From: a virus
Taxonomy: Duplodnaviria; Heunggongvirae; Uroviricota; Caudoviricetes
Strand: one strand, 5' to 3'
IMG/VR virus record: IMGVR_UViG_2657245081_000003
DNA: 18,978 nt
Both the position numbers and the translations under genes were made by a program. Under the pieces are notes generated by a model. It saw only the letters and a program-made list of their open reading frames with translations, was not told the DNA's origin and did no database searches. Positions 1,513-17,560 of this stretch are shown in pieces. How positions within the stretch are numbered: the first letter of the stretch is position 1; each line of letters opens with the position of its first letter.

Positions 1513-2099
1513 AACCCCACCTCGCAGACAAAGCGGGTGTAAATTGAGGGAATACAACGTATCGCAAAAAAGCAGAAACGTAACAGACTCGGAGTCAGTG
1601 AATAACTCAGGTATTGGGTTATCAGCTAATATCGAGACTCAAAAAATGGAAAAATCCGCTCGACGGCGGGTTTAAGCTGTGTGACGAAGTAACCACTCTT
1701 AACAGCATAACCAATTTTTTACGTACGTAAACCACTAAATGATATTTGCGAGAATGCTACCGAGTATTGAAAACACCACTACAAATACATAAGCAAATCT
1801 CAACAAATAACCAACAAATAATTTCCAGCGTTATTTTTAGCTGGTTTAAATTGAATCTTCAAATTATAGAGCACTTATAAATAACAGCCATTAATATAAA
1901 TTGGCTAATAGATTTATTTTTATTCAGCCAAGAGCCATGAATAGGATTCGATAGAAAAAGTTCAGATAAAAATAGAGATCTACTTCACAAATCAAATGAG
2001 AAACCAAAACTTACATCTTGAAATAATCACATTGATTAGATGAATATTTATCGCGCAGTGACATCATTTTTTAATAATAGTTCAAAAAAAGGGCTCACG

Positions 2100-3182
2100 A
2101 TGAAAAAATTAACAGTGGCAATTTCTGCTGTAGCTGCATCAGTACTGATGGCGATGTCTGCTCAGGCAGCTGAAATTTATAATAAAGACAGTAACAAGCT
2201 GGATCTGTACGGGAAAGTTAATGCTAAGCACTACTTCTCCTCTAATGATGCAGATGATGGTGATACTACTTATGCCCGTCTTGGCTTCAAAGGTGAAACC
2301 CAAATCAACGATCAACTGACTGGTTTCGGTCAGTGGGAATATGAATTCAAAGGCAACCGCGCTGAATCTCAAGGTTCCTCCAAAGATAAAACCCGTCTTG
2401 CCTTCGCTGGCCTGAAATTCGGTGACTACGGCTCCATCGATTATGGCCGTAACTACGGTGTAGCATACGATATTGGTGCATGGACCGACGTTCTGCCAGA
2501 ATTCGGTGGCGATACCTGGACCCAAACAGATGTATTCATGACTGGTCGCACCACAGGTGTTGCAACTTATCGTAACAATGACTTCTTTGGTCTGGTTGAT
2601 GGTCTGAACTTTGCTGCTCAGTATCAGGGTAAAAATGACCGCACTGACGTAACTGAAGCTAATGGTGATGGTTTCGGTTTCTCCACTACTTATGAGTATG
2701 AAGGATTCGGTGTAGGTGCAACCTATGCTAAATCTGACCGCACTAATAATCAGGTTATCTACGGTAACAACAGCCTGAATGCATCTGGTCAAAATGCTGA
2801 AGTATGGGCAGCTGGTCTGAAATATGATGCGAACAACATCTATCTGGCTACCACCTATTCTGAAACCCAGAACATGACTGTTTTTGGTAATAACCATATT
2901 GCCAACAAAGCACAAAACTTCGAAGTAGTTGCACAATATCAGTTCGACTTCGGTCTGCGTCCGTCCGTTGCTTACCTGCAATCTAAAGGAAAAGACTTGG
3001 GTGCGTGGGGTGATCAGGACTTGGTTGAATATATTGATGTAGGTGCAACCTATTACTTCAACAAAAATATGTCCACTTTTGTTGATTACAAAATCAACCT
3101 GATTGATAAGAGCGATTTCACGAAAGCATCTGGCGTTGCTACCGATGATATCGTTGCTGTAGGTATGGTTTACCAGTTCTAA
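2100..3182 (+). CDS. nmpC: Outer-membrane general porin, phage-encoded Lc/NmpC type (OmpC/OmpF/PhoE family)
   Basis: Translation [47 protein letters not shown]... ...VGMVYQF has a signal peptide ending AQA, a porin-family body and a C-terminal aromatic residue (F) typical of beta-barrel OMPs. It sits between Q and S on the opposite strand, as nmpC does in DLP12. Start chosen at ATG 2100 (AGGG SD) rather than the track's 2040. Confidence 0.9.
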
Positions 3183-3197
3183 TTTGATTACTAAAAG

Positions 3198-3231
3198 ATA
3201 TGTTGCGGGAGGCTTTGCCTCCCCAACATAT
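3198..3231. terminator. Long imperfect hairpin (15-bp stem, one bulge, 3-nt loop) downstream of porin gene; on the - strand it is followed by CUUUU and is a candidate tR'-like terminator of a short Q-side transcript
   Basis: ATATGTTGCGGGAGGC-TTT-GCCTCCCCAACATAT read directly; the reverse complement of the right arm equals the left arm minus one C. Confidence 0.45.
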
Positions 3232-3318
3232 AAGTGGCTCCCTCAAGCCACTTCCTTTAGGAGCACAACCTTGCTTCTAACTATATAAACCTTCTGTTAT
3301 ATATTACCCTTTATTTTT

Positions 3319-3343
3319 GGGGGCGTCTCAACGCCCCATTTTT
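3319..3343 (+). terminator. Rho-independent terminator (GGGGCG-tctcaa-CGCCCC followed by ATTTTT) for + strand transcription (porin gene)
   Basis: Perfect 6-bp GC-rich stem plus T-tract read directly; lies between the convergent porin and Q genes. Confidence 0.55.
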
Positions 3344-3370
3344 AATAACTTTTAGTAAATAATTGGCGTA

Positions 3371-3754
3371 TTAATTAGAGTTATTAACAACGATATCCAT
3401 CTCTAACCGGATATCTAATGCCATTAACATCCCTTCAATTATGCCCTCAGCCTTCTGTAACCTTTTCCCGATATAACCATCAGAGCAGCAATGCTTACCT
3501 GCCAGTGACATGAATGTCATACCGACTACATAATAATCTACTAATAAATCGTGCAAATCGCTGTTGTTCTTTTTCAGACGGGCCATGCACCCGCAAATGA
3601 TCATCGCGTCATCGTCACAACATTGCGGGCGAGATTTTACTTTTGAAGTAATTAATCCCTTAAAACCGGCGGCAATGGACGACCAGGTCACATCTTCATG
3701 ATTATTAGCCGCCCACGCTCCCCAACGCTCAAGAACCATCTGAATATCACGCAT
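3371..3754 (-). CDS. Q: Late-gene antiterminator Q (phage 21/82 - DLP12 QuuD type)
   Basis: Translation [64 protein letters not shown]... matches DLP12 QuuD from memory, with cysteine-rich zinc-binding motifs. The ATG at 3754 is preferred over the upstream TTG at 3769. Confidence 0.85.
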
Positions 3755-5519: not shown

Positions 5520-6938
5520 ATGAAATATTTCTCAACTGGTTTTTATGTTTCAAACTCCACATCTCTAGCTGAGATCTTTAATGAATGTTTTTCTTGGGTA
5601 AACGACTCACCACATACAACTTTTATTCCAGCACAATTAGTATGTGATTATAAAAGCGAGGAGTACTTCATAGAGTCTAAAAATGAAAGAATTGATATAA
5701 TAACTTATAAAAACAAAGATACTAGTTTAGGCTGTTTTAGGTATTCGAAAATATCTGAGCCACACAAATGGGTAACAGATATTTCAATTAATAAAAATCT
5801 CAAAACTGATACCATGTGGATTCAGGTGGAATCTAGCGTTGTAAGCCAAGATGCAGCTTATCTAGCCCCGCAACCTAAGAAACCATTAGTTGTTATGAGA
5901 TTGATTGATAAATTTTCTGGTGGTCTTGATGATATTTTCAAGGTGTCAGTCGAACCTCATTCCTTAGATGATACTGATGAACATTTAAATATAGCAGCTA
6001 AAGTTATAAATGGTGAAACTGACAACAGACTACCAATAATATACGTTAGCTCCAAGTATTTTTTTAATGAACATGCTCACAATATCATCCCAGAACGCCT
6101 TGCAAGAAAGGTATGCGGATTAGCACATGTATTAATTGAGCCTAGCAATAGACTATTTTCTATTAAGCTAAAAAATGAGACAAATGCTAAAAATGCCTAT
6201 GCTGGTGCTGTTGGTATCTATTGGCCACGGGGTCAAAATATCAGTTTTTATCGCCGTGGTGAGAAAACCGCAAAAGAATTTGAAGATGAGTTATTTGATG
6301 ATGTTGTAAGAGCTACGACTACAATGGCTCCTGTCTCAGATAGTGGATGGAGTGAGATACAAACCAGAAAAACGAAAGACTCTATTAACTCACTCAAAGA
6401 AAGAGGAGAATACACACGCGAACTGATGGCGCTTTACGAAGCCGATAATGTTGCGAAAGATGACCAAATAGAAGATCTTAAGCATAAGATCTCCTCTTTA
6501 GAGCACAGAGTACGCACTCTTCAATCACAAGCTTCAGCCCAAGGAAGCATTGTGCTTAATGCTGGTGAAGAGACTGATTTTTTTGATGGAGAAATCAAAA
6601 ATATAATTATTGACGCACTAAAAACTGCCATAAAAAATAAAAATGAATTTGGTAGAAGCTACCATATCTTATCATCCCTAATTGCCAATAATGAATACAA
6701 TAAAGAAACCGAGAGTCGCCGCCAATTACTTAAAAGGACTTTAACAGGTTACAGAAGCATGGATAGCGCAACACAAAGAAATTTAAAGGACTTAGGTTTC
6801 AGTGCGTCAAGCGATGGAAAACACTGGAAGTTAACATATAATGAAGACCCTCGATATTCCTATATTTTACCTAAAACAGGAAGTGACCACAGAGGTTCTT
6901 TAAATGCTATCTCGGATATAGCAAACATTATTTTCTAA
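5520..6938 (+). CDS. Hypothetical protein, 472 aa, no recognisable family; AT-rich accessory gene (moron), candidate phage-defence or exclusion function
   Basis: Long uninterrupted ORF with SD AAGGA 7 nt upstream of the ATG and strongly AT-biased codons unlike the neighbours. It is on the strand opposite to the surrounding operon and is followed by a perfect hairpin. A predicted coiled-coil segment is present (ELMALYEADNVAKDDQIEDLKHKISSLEHRVRTLQSQ). No Walker A or other motif recognised by eye. Confidence 0.75.
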   Translation: MKYFSTGFYVSNSTSLAEIFNECFSWVNDSPHTTFIPAQLVCDYKSEEYFIESKNERIDIITYKNKDTSLGCFRYSKISEPHKWVTDISINKNLKTDTMWIQVESSVVSQDAAYLAPQPKKPLVVMRLIDKFSGGLDDIFKVSVEPHSLDDTDEHLNIAAKVINGETDNRLPIIYVSSKYFFNEHAHNIIPERLARKVCGLAHVLIEPSNRLFSIKLKNETNAKNAYAGAVGIYWPRGQNISFYRRGEKTAKEFEDELFDDVVRATTTMAPVSDSGWSEIQTRKTKDSINSLKERGEYTRELMALYEADNVAKDDQIEDLKHKISSLEHRVRTLQSQASAQGSIVLNAGEETDFFDGEIKNIIIDALKTAIKNKNEFGRSYHILSSLIANNEYNKETESRRQLLKRTLTGYRSMDSATQRNLKDLGFSASSDGKHWKLTYNEDPRYSYILPKTGSDHRGSLNAISDIANIIF

Positions 6939-10250: not shown

Positions 10251-10940
10251 ATGAAAACAACACTCTCAGAAAGACTTAAAGAAGCCAGATTAGCGCGAGG
10301 CCTTACACAAAAGGCGCTTGGGGATTTGGTCGGGGTTAGCCAGGCTGCTATTCAGAAAATCGAAACAGGGAAAGCTAACCAAACAACTAAAATCGTGGAG
10401 ATCGCGAACGCTTTGGGTGTGCGCGCAGAATGGTTATCTTCTGGCGTTGGAAATATGTCAGACAGTACAGTGCAACCAATACAATCAACTGTCAGCCATT
10501 CCAAATACTTCAAAATTGACGTTCTTGATATAGAAGTCAGTGCCGGGCCAGGTGTAATCAACCGTGAGTTTGTAGAAGTTCTACGCTCGGTTGAGTACTC
10601 GTTTGACGATGCTCGTCACATGTTCGATGGCAGGAAGGCGGAAAATATCCGCATCATTAACGTGCGAGGTGACAGCATGTCAGGGACGATCGAACCAGGT
10701 GACCTGCTGTTCGTTGATATCACTGTTAAATCTTTCGACGGTGATGGCATCTATGCGTTTCTGTACGACGACACTGCCCATGTAAAACGTCTTCAAATGA
10801 TGAAGGATAAGCTGCTGGTTATCTCTGATAACAAGAGCTACTCGCCGTGGGACCCGATCGAGAAAGACGAGATGAACCGGGTGTTCATATTCGGTAAGGT
10901 CATTGGAAGCATGCCGCAGACGTACAGGAAGCATGGTTAA
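10251..10940 (+). CDS. cI: CI prophage repressor (N-terminal HTH, C-terminal LexA-like S24 autopeptidase domain)
   Basis: Translation MKTTLSERLKEARLARGLTQKALGDLVGVSQAAIQKIETGKANQ... has an HTH, then a linker, then the S24 motifs RGDSMSGTIEPGDLLFVD and HVKRL (Ser/Lys dyad). Confidence 0.9.
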   Translation: MKTTLSERLKEARLARGLTQKALGDLVGVSQAAIQKIETGKANQTTKIVEIANALGVRAEWLSSGVGNMSDSTVQPIQSTVSHSKYFKIDVLDIEVSAGPGVINREFVEVLRSVEYSFDDARHMFDGRKAENIRIINVRGDSMSGTIEPGDLLFVDITVKSFDGDGIYAFLYDDTAHVKRLQMMKDKLLVISDNKSYSPWDPIEKDEMNRVFIFGKVIGSMPQTYRKHG

Positions 10941-11169: not shown

Positions 11170-11550
11170 ATGAGAAAAATCCTAATCGCTGCCATGATGG
11201 CATCTGTATTGGCTGGGTGTGCTTCTTCAGGCAACCAGCAACTCAAAAATGAAACTGAAATTAGTGTCCAGTCTAAACTTCAGGAAGGTAAAACAACCAA
11301 GAATGAGGTTAAATCTTACTTTGGTTCTCCTGATGCTGTTTCATATACTGACAGTGGAAACGAGATCTGGAAGTACGCCTTTGCAAAAGTAAAAGTTAAT
11401 GGCACCACTTTTATTCCATTCTATGGATTATTCCATAATGGAACGAACGGTACGAAAAAAGAACTTACTATTCTTTTTAACGATGACACGATTAAGAAAT
11501 ACACAATGTCAGAAACCCAAATAAACTCGAAATCAGGTTGGGCTGACTGA
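11170..11550 (+). CDS. Lipoprotein (126 aa), AT-rich moron at the rexAB position downstream of cI; possible BamE/SmpA-OmlA-like fold; candidate superinfection-exclusion factor
   Basis: Translation MRKILIAAMMASVLAGCASSGNQQ... has a signal peptide with lipobox LAGC; the mature part is hydrophilic. Followed directly by a rho-independent terminator. Confidence 0.75.
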   Translation: MRKILIAAMMASVLAGCASSGNQQLKNETEISVQSKLQEGKTTKNEVKSYFGSPDAVSYTDSGNEIWKYAFAKVKVNGTTFIPFYGLFHNGTNGTKKELTILFNDDTIKKYTMSETQINSKSGWAD

Positions 11551-12615: not shown

Positions 12616-13401
12616 ATGAGTACAGCACTCGCAACGCTGGCTGGGAAGCTGGCTGAACGAGTCGGCATGGATTCTGTCGACCCACAGGAACTGATCACCA
12701 CTCTTCGCCAGACGGCATTTAAAGGTGATGCCAGCGATGCGCAGTTCATCGCATTGCTGATCGTCGCCAACCAGTACGGTCTTAATCCGTGGACGAAAGA
12801 AATTTACGCCTTCCCTGATAAGCAGAACGGCATCGTTCCGGTGGTGGGCGTTGATGGCTGGTCCCGCATCATCAACGAAAACCAGCAGTTTGACGGCATG
12901 GACTTTGAACAGGACAACGAATCCTGCACATGCCGGATTTACCGCAAAGACCGCAATCATCCGATCTGCGTTACCGAGTGGATGGATGAATGCCGCCGCG
13001 AACCATTCAAAACCCGCGAAGGCAGAGAAATCACGGGGCCGTGGCAGTCGCATCCCAAACGGATGTTACGGCATAAAGCCATGATTCAGTGTGCCCGTCT
13101 GGCCTTCGGATTTGCTGGTATCTATGACAAGGATGAAGCCGAGCGCATTGTCGAAAATACTGCATACACTGCAGAACGTCAGCCGGAACGCGACATCACT
13201 CCGGTTAACGATGAAACCATGCAGGAGATTAACACTCTGCTGATCGCCCTGGATAAAACATGGGATGACGACTTATTGCCGCTCTGTTCCCAGATATTTC
13301 GCCGCGACATTCGCGCATCGTCAGAACTGACACAGGCCGAAGCAGTGAAAGCTCTTGGATTCCTTAAACAGAAAGCCACTGAGCAGAAGGTGGCAGCATG
13401 A
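12616..13401 (+). CDS. bet: Bet (Red-beta single-strand annealing protein)
   Basis: The 261-aa translation [82 protein letters not shown]... is essentially identical to lambda Bet from memory. Confidence 0.95.
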
Positions 13402-14078
13402 CACCGGACATTATCCTGCAGCGTACCGGGATCGACGTGAGAGTTGTCGAACAGGGGGATGATGCATGGCACAAATTACGGCTCGGCGTCATCACCGCTT
13501 CAGAAGTTCACAACGTGATAGCAAAGCCCCGCTCAGGAAAGAAGTGGCCTGACATGAAAATGTCCTACTTCCACACCCTGCTGGCTGAGGTTTGCACCGG
13601 TGTGGCTCCGGAAGTTAATGCTAAGGCGCTGGCCTGGGGAAAACAGTACGAGAACGACGCCAGAACCCTGTTTGAATTCACTTCCGGCGTGAATATTACT
13701 GAATCCCCGATCATCTATCGCGACGAAAATATGCGCACCGCCTGCTCTCCCGATGGTTTATGCAGTGACGGCAACGGCCTTGAACTGAAATGCCCGTTTA
13801 CCTCCCGGGATTTCATGAAATTCCGGCTCGGTGGTTTCGAGGCAATAAAATCGGCTTACATGGCCCAGGTGCAGTACAGCATGTGGGTGACGCGAAAAGA
13901 TGCCTGGTACTTTGCCAACTATGACCCGCGCATGAAGCGTGAAGGCCTGCATTACGTCGTGGTTGAGCGGAATGAAAAGTACATGGCGAGTTTTGACGAG
14001 ATGGTGCCGGAGTTCATCGAAAAAATGGACGAGGCACTGGCTGAAATTGGTTTTGTATATGGGGAGCAATGGCAATGA
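13398..14078 (+). CDS. exo: Exo (Red-alpha 5'-3' exonuclease)
   Basis: The 226-aa translation [65 protein letters not shown]... matches lambda Exo; overlaps the bet stop as in lambda. Confidence 0.95.
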
Positions 14079-14497: not shown

Positions 14498-14713
14498 ATG
14501 ACACCTCAGCAAGAAAACGCCCTTCGCAGCATTGCCCGTCAGGCTAATTCTGAAATCAAAAAAGCCAGACAGCAGTTTCCGGATAAAAACGTCGATGACA
14601 TTTGCCGTAGCGTACTAAAGAAGCACCGCGAAACGGTAACGCTGATGGGATTCACACCGACTCATTTAAGCCTGGCGATCGGCATGTTGAACGGCGTCTT
14701 TAAGGAACGGTGA
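14498..14713 (+). CDS. Lambda orf61-like small protein
   Basis: Translation MTPQQENALRSIARQANSEIKKARQQFPDKNVDDICRSVLKKHRETVTLMGFTPTHLSLAIGMLNGVFKER. Start taken at the internal ATG; the longer track ORF begins at 14432. Confidence 0.55.
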   Translation: MTPQQENALRSIARQANSEIKKARQQFPDKNVDDICRSVLKKHRETVTLMGFTPTHLSLAIGMLNGVFKER

Positions 14714-14811
14714 ACATGAAAAGCAAAATCATCAGGGAGCTACAGGCTCCTTTTTTATTATTCGCATTCACCCTCAAGCGTATTAACCAACAATTCAGGG
14801 ATTAATGAAAG

Positions 14812-15033
14812 ATGGCAGACATAATTGATTCAGCATCAGAAATTGAAGAATTACAGCGCAACACAGCAATAAAAATGCGCCGCCTGAACCACCAGGCTAT
14901 ATCTGCCACTCATTGTTGTGAGTGTGGCGATCCGATAGATGAACGAAGACGACTGGCCGTTCAGGGTTGTCGGACTTGTGCCAGTTGCCAGCAAGATCTG
15001 GAGCTTATCAGTAAACAGAGAGGTTCGAAGTGA
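14812..15033 (+). CDS. TraR/DksA-family C4 zinc-finger protein (lambda orf73-like)
   Basis: 73 aa with a C-x2-C-x17-C-x2-C motif (CCECGDPIDERRRLAVQGCRTCASC), characteristic of the TraR/DksA RNA-polymerase-binding family. Confidence 0.8.
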   Translation: MADIIDSASEIEELQRNTAIKMRRLNHQAISATHCCECGDPIDERRRLAVQGCRTCASCQQDLELISKQRGSK

Positions 15034-15185
15034 GCGAAATTAACTAGAAGCCAAAGATAAAATCATCGCTGAGCAGGAGAAAATCGCTAACGGAGAAAAG
15101 ACAGTAAGTCAGTATATGAAAACCGCATGATATCATCAGATAAAAATCGGTCGTAAAGCGAAATATTAATACCAGAACAAACGAG

Positions 15186-15209
15186 TCGAGGTAAATTATA
15201 TTACCTCGA
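15186..15209. other. Hairpin (9-bp stem TCGAGGTAA / TTACCTCGA, 6-nt loop) between the convergent orf73-like and membrane-protein genes; no U-tract
   Basis: Read directly; it could be a factor-dependent terminator or a protein-binding dyad. Confidence 0.3.
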
Positions 15210-15243
15210 TAAATTAACTAAAACTTGCCCGCTATATACTATA

Positions 15244-15846
15244 TCATTCAGTATCATCACGCGCGGTCTGTGCATATGTCACTACCGCACCTAATATATT
15301 AATTTTCTTTTCAACATAGATAATATTATCGTACTCATAATTGCCATACGGATAGCAAATGCGAATATTCTCATGTAGATCGGGGTCATCCACCTCAGCT
15401 CCAGAACAACTTTTTGAACTACCGGAAGTATACCGATACGGTGCAACGTAAGACGATGTCTCTCCAGGCAAAAAATAAGTTAGTGTCGTAAGGGGTATAA
15501 TCAGAAAAAATCCAGCAAATATGCACATCCCTGCATAAACCTTAAGGTATGCTGACAGACTCTTCCAGCCGCTTTGTTTTACTATCCCCTTCTTAACCCA
15601 AAACAGAGATAACAGAAAAGCTATTCCCATGCTAAACAGAATGTAATAGTGGGATATACTCTGATTAAGAAACGTGACCCTGTAGATATCTGCCCGCCAC
15701 CAGAAGAAAAGGAAAATAAAGATCAGCCCTGAAACTGTCATGCAAATCAAATAAGGATACGAATCTTTTTTCATGTTTAGCGCCCATAAAATTTTTCCTG
15801 ACCCGGACAAATTTACCATCCATTTTTTGCGCAGAAAATAGCTCAT
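15244..15846 (-). CDS. Hypothetical membrane protein (about 3 TM helices plus a C-terminal soluble domain), AT-rich, opposite strand to the early-left operon; candidate exclusion/accessory gene
   Basis: Hydrophobic segments PYLICMTVSGLIFIFLFFWW, YYILFSMGIAFLLSLFWV and YAGMCIFAGFFLIIPLTTLTYFL. The exact start is uncertain (three in-frame ATGs, none with a strong SD). It occupies the place where lambda has ea22/ea8.5. Confidence 0.6.
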   Translation of the reverse strand: MSYFLRKKWMVNLSGSGKILWALNMKKDSYPYLICMTVSGLIFIFLFFWWRADIYRVTFLNQSISHYYILFSMGIAFLLSLFWVKKGIVKQSGWKSLSAYLKVYAGMCIFAGFFLIIPLTTLTYFLPGETSSYVAPYRYTSGSSKSCSGAEVDDPDLHENIRICYPYGNYEYDNIIYVEKKINILGAVVTYAQTARDDTE

Positions 15847-16051
15847 TACTTACTGCACAATAATACACAAAATTGCGTAAATTTTTTGCATGGATTTTAG
15901 CTCTTTCAGCCGACATTTAAGGGGTAAATAGCATTTCCTAAAAGCAACTGCACCAACCCAACAGAATGGGCTACCGCTTACGTTGAGAGCAAAAAAGTGT
16001 ATAGCAGCAATGAACAGCATCCTCGCACTGACGAGGATTTCTTTTATCTGA

Positions 16052-16073
16052 ACTCGCTACGGCGAGTTTTTTT
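16052..16073 (+). terminator. Rho-independent terminator-like hairpin (ACTCGC-tacg-GCGAGT + TTTTTTT)
   Basis: Read directly, in the non-coding remnant region between the membrane-protein gene and xis. Confidence 0.45.
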
Positions 16074-16245
16074 ATGGAGATGATAAATGCACTTCCGAGT
16101 CACAGGTGAATAGAATGGAGAACCATTCAACAGAGTTATCGAAGCCGAGAACATCAGCGACTGCTATGACCACTGGATGCTGTGGGCGCAGATAGCACAT
16201 GCAGACGTAACCAATATTCGAATTGAAGAACTGAAAGAACACCAA

Positions 16246-16267
16246 GCCGCCTGATGGCGGTTTTTTC
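16246..16267 (+). terminator. Rho-independent terminator-like hairpin (GCCGCC-tgat-GGCGGT + TTTTTTC) immediately upstream of xis
   Basis: Read directly; 6-bp stem including one G-U pair, followed by a T-tract. Confidence 0.5.
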
Positions 16268-16293
16268 TTGCGTGTAATTGCGGAGACTTTGCG

Positions 16294-16512
16294 ATGTACT
16301 TGACACTTCAGGAGTGGAACGCTCGCCAGCGACGCCCAAGAAGCCTTGAAACAGTTCGTCGATGGGTGCGCGAATGCAGGATATTCCCTCCTCCGGTTAA
16401 GGATGGAAGAGAATATCTGTTCCACGAATCAGCGGTAAAGGTTGACTTAAATCGACCAGTAACAGGTAGCCTTTTGAAGAGGATCAGAAATGGGAAGAAG
16501 GCGAAGTCATGA
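16294..16512 (+). CDS. xis: Excisionase Xis (lambda-type)
   Basis: Translation MYLTLQEWNARQRRPRSLETVRRWVRECRIFPPPVKDGREYLFHESAVKVDLNRPVTGSLLKRIRNGKKAKS is near-identical to lambda Xis from memory; overlaps the int start by 23 nt as in lambda. Confidence 0.95.
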   Translation: MYLTLQEWNARQRRPRSLETVRRWVRECRIFPPPVKDGREYLFHESAVKVDLNRPVTGSLLKRIRNGKKAKS

Positions 16513-17560
16513 GCGCCGGGATTTACCCCCTAACCTTTATATAAGAAACAATGGATATTACTGCTACAGGGACCCAAGGACGGGTAAAGAGTTTGGATTA
16601 GGCCGAGACAGGCGAATCGCAATCACTGAAGCTATACAGGCCAACATTGAGTTATTTTCAGGACACAAACACAAGCCTCTGACAGCGAGAATCAACAGTG
16701 ATAATTCCGTTACGTTACATTCATGGCTTGATCGCTACGAAAAAATCCTGGCCAGCAGAGGAATCAAGCAGAAGACACTCATAAATTACATGAGCAAAAT
16801 TAAAGCAATAAGGAGGGGTCTGCCTGATGCTCCACTTGAAGACATCACCACAAAAGAAATTGCGGCAATGCTCAATGGATACATAGACGAGGGCAAGGCG
16901 GCGTCAGCCAAGTTAATCAGATCAACACTGAGCGATGCATTCCGAGAGGCAATAGCTGAAGGCCATATAACAACAAACCCTGTCGCTGCCACTCGCGCAG
17001 CAAAATCAGAGGTAAGGAGATCAAGACTTACGGCTGACGAATACCTGAAAATTTATCAAGCAGCAGAATCATCACCATGTTGGCTCAGACTTGCAATGGA
17101 ACTGGCTGTTGTTACCGGGCAACGAGTTGGTGATTTATGCGAAATGAAGTGGTCTGATATCGTAGATGGATATCTTTATGTCGAGCAAAGCAAAACAGGC
17201 GTAAAAATTGCCATCCCAACAACATTGCATGTTGATGCTCTCGGGATATCAATGAAGGAAACACTTGATAAATGCAAAGAGATTCTTGGCGGAGAAACCA
17301 TAATTGCATCTACTCGTCGCGAACCGCTTTCATCCGGCACAGTATCAAGGTATTTTATGCGCGCACGAAAAGCATCAGGTCTTTCCTTCGAAGGGGATCC
17401 GCCTACCTTTCACGAGTTGCGCAGTTTGTCTGCAAGACTCTATGAGAAGCAGATAAGCGATAAGTTTGCTCAACATCTTCTCGGGCATAAGTCGGACACC
17501 ATGGCATCACAGTATCGTGATGACAGAGGCAGGGAGTGGGACAAAATTGAAATCAAATAA
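16490..17560 (+). CDS. int: Integrase Int (lambda-type tyrosine recombinase), intact
   Basis: The 356-aa translation MGRRRSHERRDLPPNLYIRNNGYYCYRDPRTGKEFGLGRDRRIAITEAIQANIELFSGHKHKPL... ...HLLGHKSDTMASQYRDDRGREWDKIEIK is essentially lambda Int. Confidence 0.97.
   Translation: MGRRRSHERRDLPPNLYIRNNGYYCYRDPRTGKEFGLGRDRRIAITEAIQANIELFSGHKHKPLTARINSDNSVTLHSWLDRYEKILASRGIKQKTLINYMSKIKAIRRGLPDAPLEDITTKEIAAMLNGYIDEGKAASAKLIRSTLSDAFREAIAEGHITTNPVAATRAAKSEVRRSRLTADEYLKIYQAAESSPCWLRLAMELAVVTGQRVGDLCEMKWSDIVDGYLYVEQSKTGVKIAIPTTLHVDALGISMKETLDKCKEILGGETIIASTRREPLSSGTVSRYFMRARKASGLSFEGDPPTFHELRSLSARLYEKQISDKFAQHLLGHKSDTMASQYRDDRGREWDKIEIK

Follow-up and report, generated by a model that had tools for sequence, protein, structure and literature searches.

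A reversed membrane-protein gene in the early-left operon of a lambdoid prophage: a candidate superinfection-exclusion moron

The lambdoid prophage recorded in the IMG/VR database as IMGVR_UViG_2657245081_000003 carries, between orf73 and xis, a segment of foreign DNA with a gene for a small predicted membrane protein that reads against the early-left operon. The segment, its gene and the family to which the protein belongs are described here within the full 18,978 nucleotides (nt) that were analyzed, hereafter the window. The gene is very probably a functional accessory gene of the moron type, and a tentative case can be made that its product protects the lysogen from superinfecting phages at the level of the envelope.

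The segment between orf73 and xis

The early-left (pL) operon of the prophage reads on the + strand, with exo followed by orf60a/orf63-like open reading frames (ORFs), orf73, xis and int (Table 1). Since the bacterial gene ybhC lies beyond int, the prophage is integrated at the λ attachment site. Positions 14700-16600 are 99.5% identical to mEp332 and 98% identical to 434 and 2B8, all three of which share the same arrangement of segments; λ covers only 49% of this stretch. In blastn alignments, homology to λ stops sharply at about 15045, 15 nt into ea22, and returns just as sharply at about 16019, 19 nt past the ea8.5 stop codon. The 973 bp in between stand in place of 1025 bp in λ that carry ea22 and ea8.5. 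An earlier note on this DNA, made from the sequence alone, had proposed that both λ genes are absent and that an opposite-strand membrane-protein gene occupies their place. This is borne out by the gap in λ homology (15045-16019) and by tblastn searches of the window, which found no trace of either gene (all E at least 0.9; best E = 0.94 for Ea8.5 and 5.1 for Ea22). The AT-richness described in the same note holds as well, with 38.3% GC in the replacement segment versus 49.2% from exo to orf73 and 45.9% across xis and int, as does the convergent orientation, with exo through orf73 on the + strand and the membrane-protein gene on the - strand. The genes ea22 and ea8.5, which fill this orf73-orf55/xis slot in λ, are + strand members of the pL operon, and their products are soluble. 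A search for known RNA families in 14800-16600 gave no match. Proteins 99.4-100% identical to the one encoded here, with identical flanks, are found in 434 (CPT_434_36, where the product is listed as a putative membrane protein), mEp332 and 2B8 and under RefSeq accession WP_000120065.1; the window is one more copy of a known, uncharacterized prophage module.

The gene was initially described as encoding a 200-amino acid (aa) protein on the - strand. Such an ORF does exist at 15244-15846 and is the longest at the locus, but its conserved start is at codon 25. Among 5.8 billion proteins searched, 74 relatives were found. Apart from the near-identical lambdoid copies in E. coli, these are 169-180 aa in length and all begin at Met25 of the 200-aa ORF, a residue that is invariant. 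The 24-codon in-frame extension that precedes it has no counterpart outside the lambdoid copies, and in Salmonella and Klebsiella the equivalent of Met25 is preceded by a good Shine-Dalgarno sequence. Across 32 lambdoid copies, the 176-codon core shows 10 synonymous versus 8 nonsynonymous differences, which indicates purifying selection on the core; the extension shows 0 synonymous versus 2 nonsynonymous differences and overlaps a candidate promoter conserved with the Salmonella form of the cassette. From these comparisons, the real protein probably has 176 aa and begins at the ATG at 15774, the 200-aa length and start are probably wrong, and 15775-15846 probably encodes no protein but represents untranslated leader or promoter DNA. 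Annotated starts vary, giving 188 aa in 434 and 200 aa in both mEp332 and WP_000120065.1.

The cassette appears to bring its own control elements. The window shares about 71% DNA similarity, from 15276 to 15870 or 15907, with loci in Salmonella P2-like prophages, and this shared DNA comprises the ORF from Met25 plus 95-130 nt upstream of the ATG. In the upstream alignment, the motifs TTTTCTG and TG[G/A]TAAATT and the ATTGTGCA repeats are conserved. A weak -35 element and an extended -10 element at a 17-nt spacing mark a candidate sigma-70 promoter of the gene's own at 15838-15810, with transcripts expected to start near 15803. This position lies downstream of the ATG of the 200-aa ORF, which again favors the 176-aa product. 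Farther upstream are three direct repeats with the consensus ATTGTGCA-NN, spaced at one helical turn, whose Salmonella equivalents read ATTGTGCAAA/ATTGTGCAGT/ATTGTGCAGC and are nearly perfect in a Salmonella P2-like prophage. The last two repeats in the window match the CII-box pattern TTGY-N6-TTGY that is annotated in the 434 record. Both the spacing and this pattern suggest a candidate site for some regulator. Control by CII is unlikely as the conserved logic of the cassette, given that these repeats are also found with the gene in P2-like prophages, which are not known to have CII. At the other end, the 9-bp-stem hairpin that had been noticed beyond the 3' end of the gene was recovered by the terminator scan 35 nt past the stop codon; its stem encloses a 6-nt loop, and CUCGUUUGUU follows. 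The 86 nt of the - strand between 15165 and 15250 fold at -20.1 kcal/mol (z = -2.6), and the hairpin is likely the rather weak intrinsic terminator of the cassette.

The predicted protein and its family

Hydropathy and AlphaFold2 place three transmembrane (TM) helices at residues ~5-29, 38-61 and 70-101 of the 176-aa protein. In the AlphaFold2 model, the helices are followed by a five-strand beta-barrel at residues 105-171, and a short strand lies in loop 1 (34-36). The full-length model has a predicted local distance difference test (pLDDT) score of 86 and a predicted template modeling (pTM) score of 0.71; modeled alone, the C-terminal domain keeps its fold with a pLDDT of 87. Among 21 family members, loop 2 carries on average 4.3 Lys and Arg residues versus 0.7 Asp and Glu, and the C-terminal domain is net acidic with exactly two cysteines. 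Based on hydropathy and this positive-inside distribution of charge, the N-terminus and loop 2 are predicted to be cytoplasmic and the C-terminal ~75 residues periplasmic. The family has 30 invariant positions, including the two cysteines, Cys123 and Cys140, which flank a beta-hairpin in the model and could plausibly form a disulfide that stabilizes the barrel. It is the C-terminal domain that is best conserved, with the motifs SCSGAxVxDPxL...IRICYPxGxY...EKRSNxLGxVV.

Library searches gave little beyond the family itself. The 200-aa ORF has no match in Pfam (best E = 0.24), and the 56-aa product of an ORF upstream has none there either; neither of them finds anything in NCBIfam or PADLOC. The only PHROG match is to phrog_1416, a family without assigned function, over residues 113-200 of the 200-aa ORF, i.e., the C-terminal domain. 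A homology search of this kind had been proposed in the earlier note, and across PHROGs, Pfam and NCBIfam no holin, lysis or other annotated phage family was matched. A profile search of sequences in the Protein Data Bank gave nothing below E = 0.4, and Foldseek against viral models returned no match at E <= 0.001 and no informative fold match. An exhaustive profile search over 1.8 billion cluster representatives found only 62 proteins, all members of the family itself, of ~170-190 aa or fragments thereof; two matches of this search to large proteins (3074 and 706 aa) were set aside as artefacts of low complexity or repeats. Homologs at 42-78% identity come from E. coli, Salmonella, Klebsiella, Enterobacter, Citrobacter, Cedecea and Pseudescherichia, and judged from members with a named organism or an inspected locus the family is apparently confined to the Enterobacteriaceae. 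One member assigned to 'Candidatus Nanosynbacter' (JARKOR010000073.1, 3.6 kb) was rejected as a binning contaminant consisting of E. coli prophage DNA, its membrane gene and exo being 96-100% identical at the protein level.

The family occupies three habitats. The first is the lambdoid slot described above, with 905 of 5426 complete E. coli genomes holding at least 80% of 15034-16293. In a census of 112 lambdoid loci from IMG/VR, chosen for carrying the orf55 segment and no less than 1.5 kb of DNA upstream of it, the slot contains the membrane gene in 28, ea22 and/or ea8.5 in 51 and other cargo, DUF2513 and DUF4752 proteins among it, in 33. Across the IMG/VR loci, the alternatives to the membrane gene on the + strand comprise Ea22-like proteins of varied length, Ea8.5-like proteins, DUF2513 (142 aa) and DUF4752 (107 aa) proteins, a 137-aa ORF and a 204-aa protein with a signal peptide; for the alternative cargo Pfam returned only DUF2513, DUF4752 or nothing and was uninformative. 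Within 0-3.5 kb upstream of orf55 in the IMG/VR loci, the membrane gene is the sole recurrent - strand ORF that resembles a real gene.

The second habitat is the gpQ-gpA site of P2-like (Peduovirus-type) prophages, with variants at 78% identity in E. coli, 71% and 59% in Salmonella and 55% in Klebsiella michiganensis, and one more at 52%. Genes for a YafO toxin, for a partition system and for a large AAA_16 protein are among the neighbors in these loci. The gpQ-gpA locus is a hotspot that holds old, tin and several validated anti-phage systems (PMC9122126). In Table S5B of the Rousset et al. 2022 survey of that hotspot, system 4 is a single 181-aa protein without a Pfam domain, noted as '3 TM' and present at 470 of 18,150 loci (PMC9122126). 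BLASTP aligns it with the window protein at 52% identity over 168 aa (E = 5e-57). The two share their length, the three TM helices, C-terminal motifs of the form SCSGAxVDDPDL...ICYPxGxY and a position as a stand-alone gene in a variable slot of a prophage. They differ in that system 4 sits at the P2-like site and the window gene in the lambdoid early-left operon, and in that the two are different sequence variants. The entry for system 4 in Rousset et al. is a catalog line only.

The third habitat is the bacterial chromosome. In at least seven Enterobacter species (carriers are E. mori, cloacae, quasihormaechei, intestinihominis, quasiroggenkampii, vonholyi and RIT637), the gene occupies one syntenic locus between the same HAMP-GGDEF and oxidoreductase/LysR genes. 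The orthologs are 68-97% identical to one another and from this pattern are apparently vertically inherited. Single chromosomal copies are also found among metabolic genes in Klebsiella sp., Citrobacter portucalensis and Pseudescherichia. In several of the Enterobacter species, the ortholog begins 16 nt after a LysR gene on the same strand, while in others the LysR gene is missing at the locus; co-transcription with or regulation by LysR could hint at the native function.

The right flank and other features of the window

Beyond the membrane-protein gene, positions 15847-16293 had been taken for a decayed ancestral segment, an interpretation that does not stand. The left part, 15847-16018, is the upstream DNA of the cassette itself, and the right part is 94.7% identical to λ. 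A remnant of ea8.5 or ea22 was sought in 15847-16293 and rejected; tblastn gave E >= 0.94 (E = 0.94 for ea8.5), and the λ match begins only past the ea8.5 stop codon. The λ-like part contains a homolog of orf55, known in the λ RefSeq record as lambdap35, which is a GeneMark prediction with no assigned function. Codon 9 of orf55 (Trp9, 16111-16113) is intact as TGG in λ, 434 and mEp332 and reads TAG, an amber codon, in the window. By comparison with λ, this single base is the sole 'decay' in 16019-16293. The TAG allele occurs in 10 IMG/VR contigs and TGG in at least 120. Since the amber allele is found both with ea22/ea8.5 cargo and with the membrane gene, it is unrelated to the replacement; either the allele has spread by recombination or orf55 is under little constraint at the protein level. 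The allele sets the window apart from the 434 and mEp332 copies, and 434 differs in turn by an additional 345-nt ORF, CPT_434_33 (434 locus 3086-3430), which has its own terminator and lies between orf55 and pI/xis. CPT_434_33 is missing from the window (16255-16293), from mEp332 and from λ, and marks a second, smaller variable point beside the first.

The earlier note also read the right flank as free of intact ORFs. Two intact ORFs are present on the - strand, of 56 and 117 codons, neither of which is gene-like. The 56-codon ORF, which the 434 and mEp332 records annotate, is probably no gene: the Prokaryotic Genome Annotation Pipeline (PGAP) makes no call, there is no PHROG, NCBIfam or PADLOC match, the ORF lies outside the DNA common to the P2-like cassettes, and its polymorphisms (0 synonymous, 3 nonsynonymous among 19 haplotypes) are all nonsynonymous. 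It was considered as an operon partner of the membrane gene and rejected, given that it is unconserved outside the lambdoid copies and that all changes are nonsynonymous. The 117-codon ORF, which overlaps xis on the opposite strand, does not look like a gene. The terminator hairpins that had been noted on the + strand are real, but there are three and not two, and all of them lie within the λ-homologous part.

Table 1. Positions of features in and around the replacement segment of the window.
Feature	Position	Strand	Evidence or remark
exo	13398-14078	+	early-left gene; orf60a/orf63-like ORFs follow
orf73, TraR/DksA-type zinc finger	14812-15033	+	phrog_54 match
Replacement segment	15046-16018	.	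973 bp, 38.3% GC; blastn junctions with λ
Terminator-like hairpin	15186-15209	-	35 nt 3' of stop; 9-bp stem, 6-nt loop, then CUCGUUUGUU
Membrane-protein coding sequence, probably 176 aa	15244-15774	-	start ATG 15774-15772; stop codon 15244-15246
24-codon in-frame N-terminal extension	15775-15846	-	makes ORF 200 aa
Conserved cassette upstream region	15810-15881	-	candidate promoter and direct repeats
Candidate extended -10, TGgTAAATT	15818-15810	-	aligned with Salmonella TG[G/A]TAAATT
Candidate sigma-70 -35, TTTTCT, weak	15838-15833	-	17-nt spacer follows
Three 10-bp direct repeats	15881-15852	-	TTTACGCAAT / TTTGTGTATT / ATTGTGCAGT
TTGT-N6-TTGT, CII-box pattern match	15870-15857	-	last two repeats; TTGY-N6-TTGY annotated in 434 record
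56-codon ORF, probably not a gene	15850-16020	-	'putative membrane protein' in 434, 'hypothetical protein' in mEp332
Conserved λ segment between ea8.5 and xis	16019-16293	+	94.7% identity over 284 nt to λ
Two tandem terminator-like hairpins, each with T-run	16019-16038, 16050-16069	+	terminator scan; both conserved in λ
117-codon ORF, not gene-like	16072-16425	-	overlaps xis on opposite strand; unannotated in every record inspected
orf55/lambdap35 homolog, 55 codons	16087-16254	+	tblastn 94.5% over 55 aa
Third terminator-like hairpin with T-run	16244-16263	+	terminator scan
pI promoter CII box, TTGC-GTGTAA-TTGC	16268-16281	+	upstream of xis; pI/CII site annotated in 434 at homologous position
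xis	16294-16512	+	
int	16490-17560	+	
ybhC, bacterial gene	from 17695		3' of int

Three other ORFs of the window deserve mention. At 5520-6938 (+), a 472-aa ORF lies opposite the replication/nin genes, where the related phage PhiR26_1 has the annotated defense gene PD-lambda-1; it has no Pfam match, in PADLOC it matches only the candidate HEC-07, and weakly so (E = 1e-9), and it is possibly another defense moron. At 2040-3182 (+), flanked by the Q antiterminator region and the lysis genes, there is an OmpD/NmpC-type porin gene (Pfam Porin_1, E = 4e-153), which is a known lambdoid moron. Finally, a 126-aa ORF at 11170-11550 (+) follows the repressor gene cI (10251-10940), reads on the same strand and stands where λ has rexAB. 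Its match to the BamE domain is sub-threshold (E = 1.6e-4), and the ORF is called a putative lipoprotein in PhiR26_1, making it a candidate for an envelope protein expressed in the lysogen.

Superinfection exclusion and its rivals

The segment 15046-16018 fits the definition of a moron in the sense of Juhala and Hendrix (PMC3594210), being extra DNA with deviant GC content, promoter- and terminator-like elements and a reversed orientation. The DNA is missing at the same map position in related phages, as evident from the break with λ and from the alternative cargo at 84 of the 112 census loci; its base composition is unlike that of the flanks; and the hairpin at 15209-15186, weak U-tract included, supplies a likely terminator of its own. 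A functional accessory membrane-protein gene of the moron type is very probably present. The earlier note had named an exclusion or abortive-infection effector. Exclusion draws circumstantial support from the homologs, 52-78% identical, in the P2 gpQ-gpA hotspot of E. coli, Salmonella and Klebsiella, and abortive infection is the weaker of the two options.

In the scheme proposed here, a horizontally mobile, AT-rich and self-contained unit would have been inserted backwards into the pL operon of a λ/434-type prophage. Its own promoter would drive the gene while pL is repressed, i.e., in the lysogen, and converging N-antiterminated transcription would silence it during lytic growth; since the gene opposes pL, good expression would be expected only with pL silent and hence in the lysogen. 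The protein may then alter the envelope of the lysogen such that superinfecting phages fail after adsorption. To do so, the periplasmic domain held at the inner membrane could disturb the genome-delivery conduit of the incoming phage or an inner-membrane factor that the conduit uses. An inner-membrane anchor joined to a folded periplasmic domain is what would be expected if a protein is to encounter something that comes in from outside. Envelope-level superinfection exclusion, by a mechanism analogous to that of P22 SieA or HK97 gp15 without homology to either, is favored on these grounds, although only tentatively and with less than even confidence.

The two precedents are instructive in different ways. 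SieA is described in the literature as a protein of the inner membrane that obstructs the conduit formed by ejection proteins. It is encoded by a stand-alone prophage gene with its own promoter and an orientation opposite to its neighbors, and has 162/164 aa with three predicted TM helices; this architecture, an inner-membrane protein of ~160 aa with three TM helices, is matched here by prediction only. The conserved FxRYPxEAxxFNK motif of SieA is predicted to be cytoplasmic, whereas the conserved domain of the present family is predicted to be periplasmic and beta-rich. Homology to SieA was rejected (hhalign probability 0.1%), and FxRYPxEAxxFNK is missing from the 176-aa sequence. HK97 gp15, the second precedent, is an exclusion protein of the inner membrane that a moron encodes; most of its relatives are genes on enterobacterial chromosomes (PMC3594210). 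Its features of deviating GC content, own promoter and terminator, expression from the prophage and a family limited to the Enterobacteriaceae recall the cassette, but gp15 has 62 aa with a single TM helix, and its gene is part of the tail operon. Homology to gp15 or YebO was likewise rejected (hhalign probability 0.9%). The evolutionary pattern of the gp15 family, a moron with chromosomal relatives, is the pattern seen here.

Put in its fullest form, the exclusion proposal is held a shade more tentatively still. The gene would represent the founding member of a new and widespread family of single-gene superinfection-exclusion systems, carried in lambdoid prophages by ~17% of complete E. coli genomes and ranking fourth among the commonest cargo of the P2 hotspot. 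Its disulfide-bonded barrel would stop the delivery of phage genomes, either in the periplasm or at the inner membrane, and the gene would have been recruited from a conserved envelope gene of the Enterobacter chromosome. The recruitment would parallel that of gp15 from the YebO family, with a different fold and target.

Several observations weigh against superinfection exclusion and the scheme of expression that accompanies it. At the level of the cassette, the consensus promoter scan flagged no site at 15838-15810, in one Salmonella variant the scan prefers another pairing of hexamers such that a second placement of the promoter is possible, and the U-tract after the 15186-15209 hairpin is weak. 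At the level of the protein, no known exclusion protein was found to resemble it in sequence or fold, and PADLOC-DB 2.0 returned 0 defense families at E <= 10. Literature searches on mEp332, the RefSeq accession, 434 with NleC and injection-blocking inner-membrane proteins located no functional study, and the family motifs do not occur in the table of cloned and tested systems of Rousset et al. (PMC9122126). The contents of the P2 hotspot extend to partition systems and a cytolethal distending toxin (PMC9122126), and with such non-defense cargo the gpQ-gpA location is suggestive and not diagnostic. Lastly, there are the chromosomal copies, syntenic in Enterobacter and present in Klebsiella, Citrobacter and Pseudescherichia.

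These chromosomal copies are central to the strongest rival, under which the protein is an envelope or fitness factor unrelated to phages, encoded by a chromosomal gene that prophages captured. Such a factor might serve in stress tolerance, in protection against colicins, bacteriocins, contact-dependent inhibition (CDI) or the type VI secretion system (T6SS), or in modulating an inner-membrane transporter. Prophage genes that benefit the lysogen are familiar from λ bor and lom. A general envelope role can be argued from the apparently vertical orthologs in at least seven Enterobacter species, held between the HAMP-GGDEF and oxidoreductase/LysR genes, and it is in keeping with the chromosomal singletons amid metabolic genes and with the non-defense cargo carried by the P2 hotspot and the lambdoid slots alike. 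However, the gene has been captured repeatedly and independently into two unrelated cargo slots of prophages, in three genera, and one of these slots is enriched in anti-phage systems. The chromosomal YebO family has, moreover, yielded a phage-borne exclusion protein in HK97 gp15 (PMC3594210), a precedent by which chromosomal relatives do not exclude a role in defense. Nothing positive points to any specific non-phage function. An envelope or fitness role is a doubtful but serious possibility, nearly as likely as superinfection exclusion.

An abortive-infection (Abi) effector is improbable. By a logic similar to that of RexB, the protein would stay inactive until infection and then depolarize or permeabilize the inner membrane, and the cell would die before phage release. 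In known systems, suicide effectors are commonly TM proteins (PMC9122126), and the small multi-TM protein described here is found in defense-rich prophage slots and has a 790-aa AAA_16 protein nearby in one P2-like locus of Klebsiella. Against this, the gene stands singly among varying neighbors with no conserved sensor partner, the folded periplasmic domain with its cysteine pair is conserved best and not the helices, Enterobacter stably keeps the gene as a lone chromosomal copy, and no PADLOC match is found. Least credible of all is a lytic function (holin, antiholin, spanin-like protein or DNA-entry helper) or an antisense unit against pL read-through into xis/int with an incidental protein, for which the convergence with pL and the CII-box-like TTGY-N6-TTGY repeat, reminiscent of the CII-dependent antisense promoter paQ of λ, could be cited; the protein is under purifying selection and conserved in P2-like prophages and chromosomes without a pL operon or CII, the gene is distant from the lysis cassette, its sole PHROG match (phrog_1416) has no known function, and its transcript heads away from xis/int.

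Returning to superinfection exclusion as the tentatively favored function, it is useful to separate what is old from what is new. The DNA is already in GenBank as part of phage 434, with the product listed as a hypothetical or putative membrane protein, and the family is cataloged without a name in the survey of the P2 hotspot. New are the link between 434 and the P2 catalog, the gene model, the chromosomal clade in Enterobacter, the predicted topology and fold, and the recognition of the supposed remnant as conserved λ DNA. For annotation, the length would be corrected from 188 or 200 to 176 aa, and the 56-codon 'membrane protein' of 434 is probably no gene. An unannotated lambdoid gene is now linked to system 4 of the P2 hotspot catalog, and the interval from orf73 to orf55/xis is shown to be a cargo slot with many alternative occupants. 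The prevalence of the gene makes it a reasonable experimental target, and there is nothing surprising about it yet. If its role in the envelope proves to be a general one, it would be one more ordinary moron. If it excludes phages, it would be among the commonest prophage-encoded blocks to phage entry in E. coli and Salmonella, it would bear on the prediction of phage host range and on failures of phage therapy, and it would offer a handle on the poorly understood step of genome injection that takes place in the periplasm and at the inner membrane.

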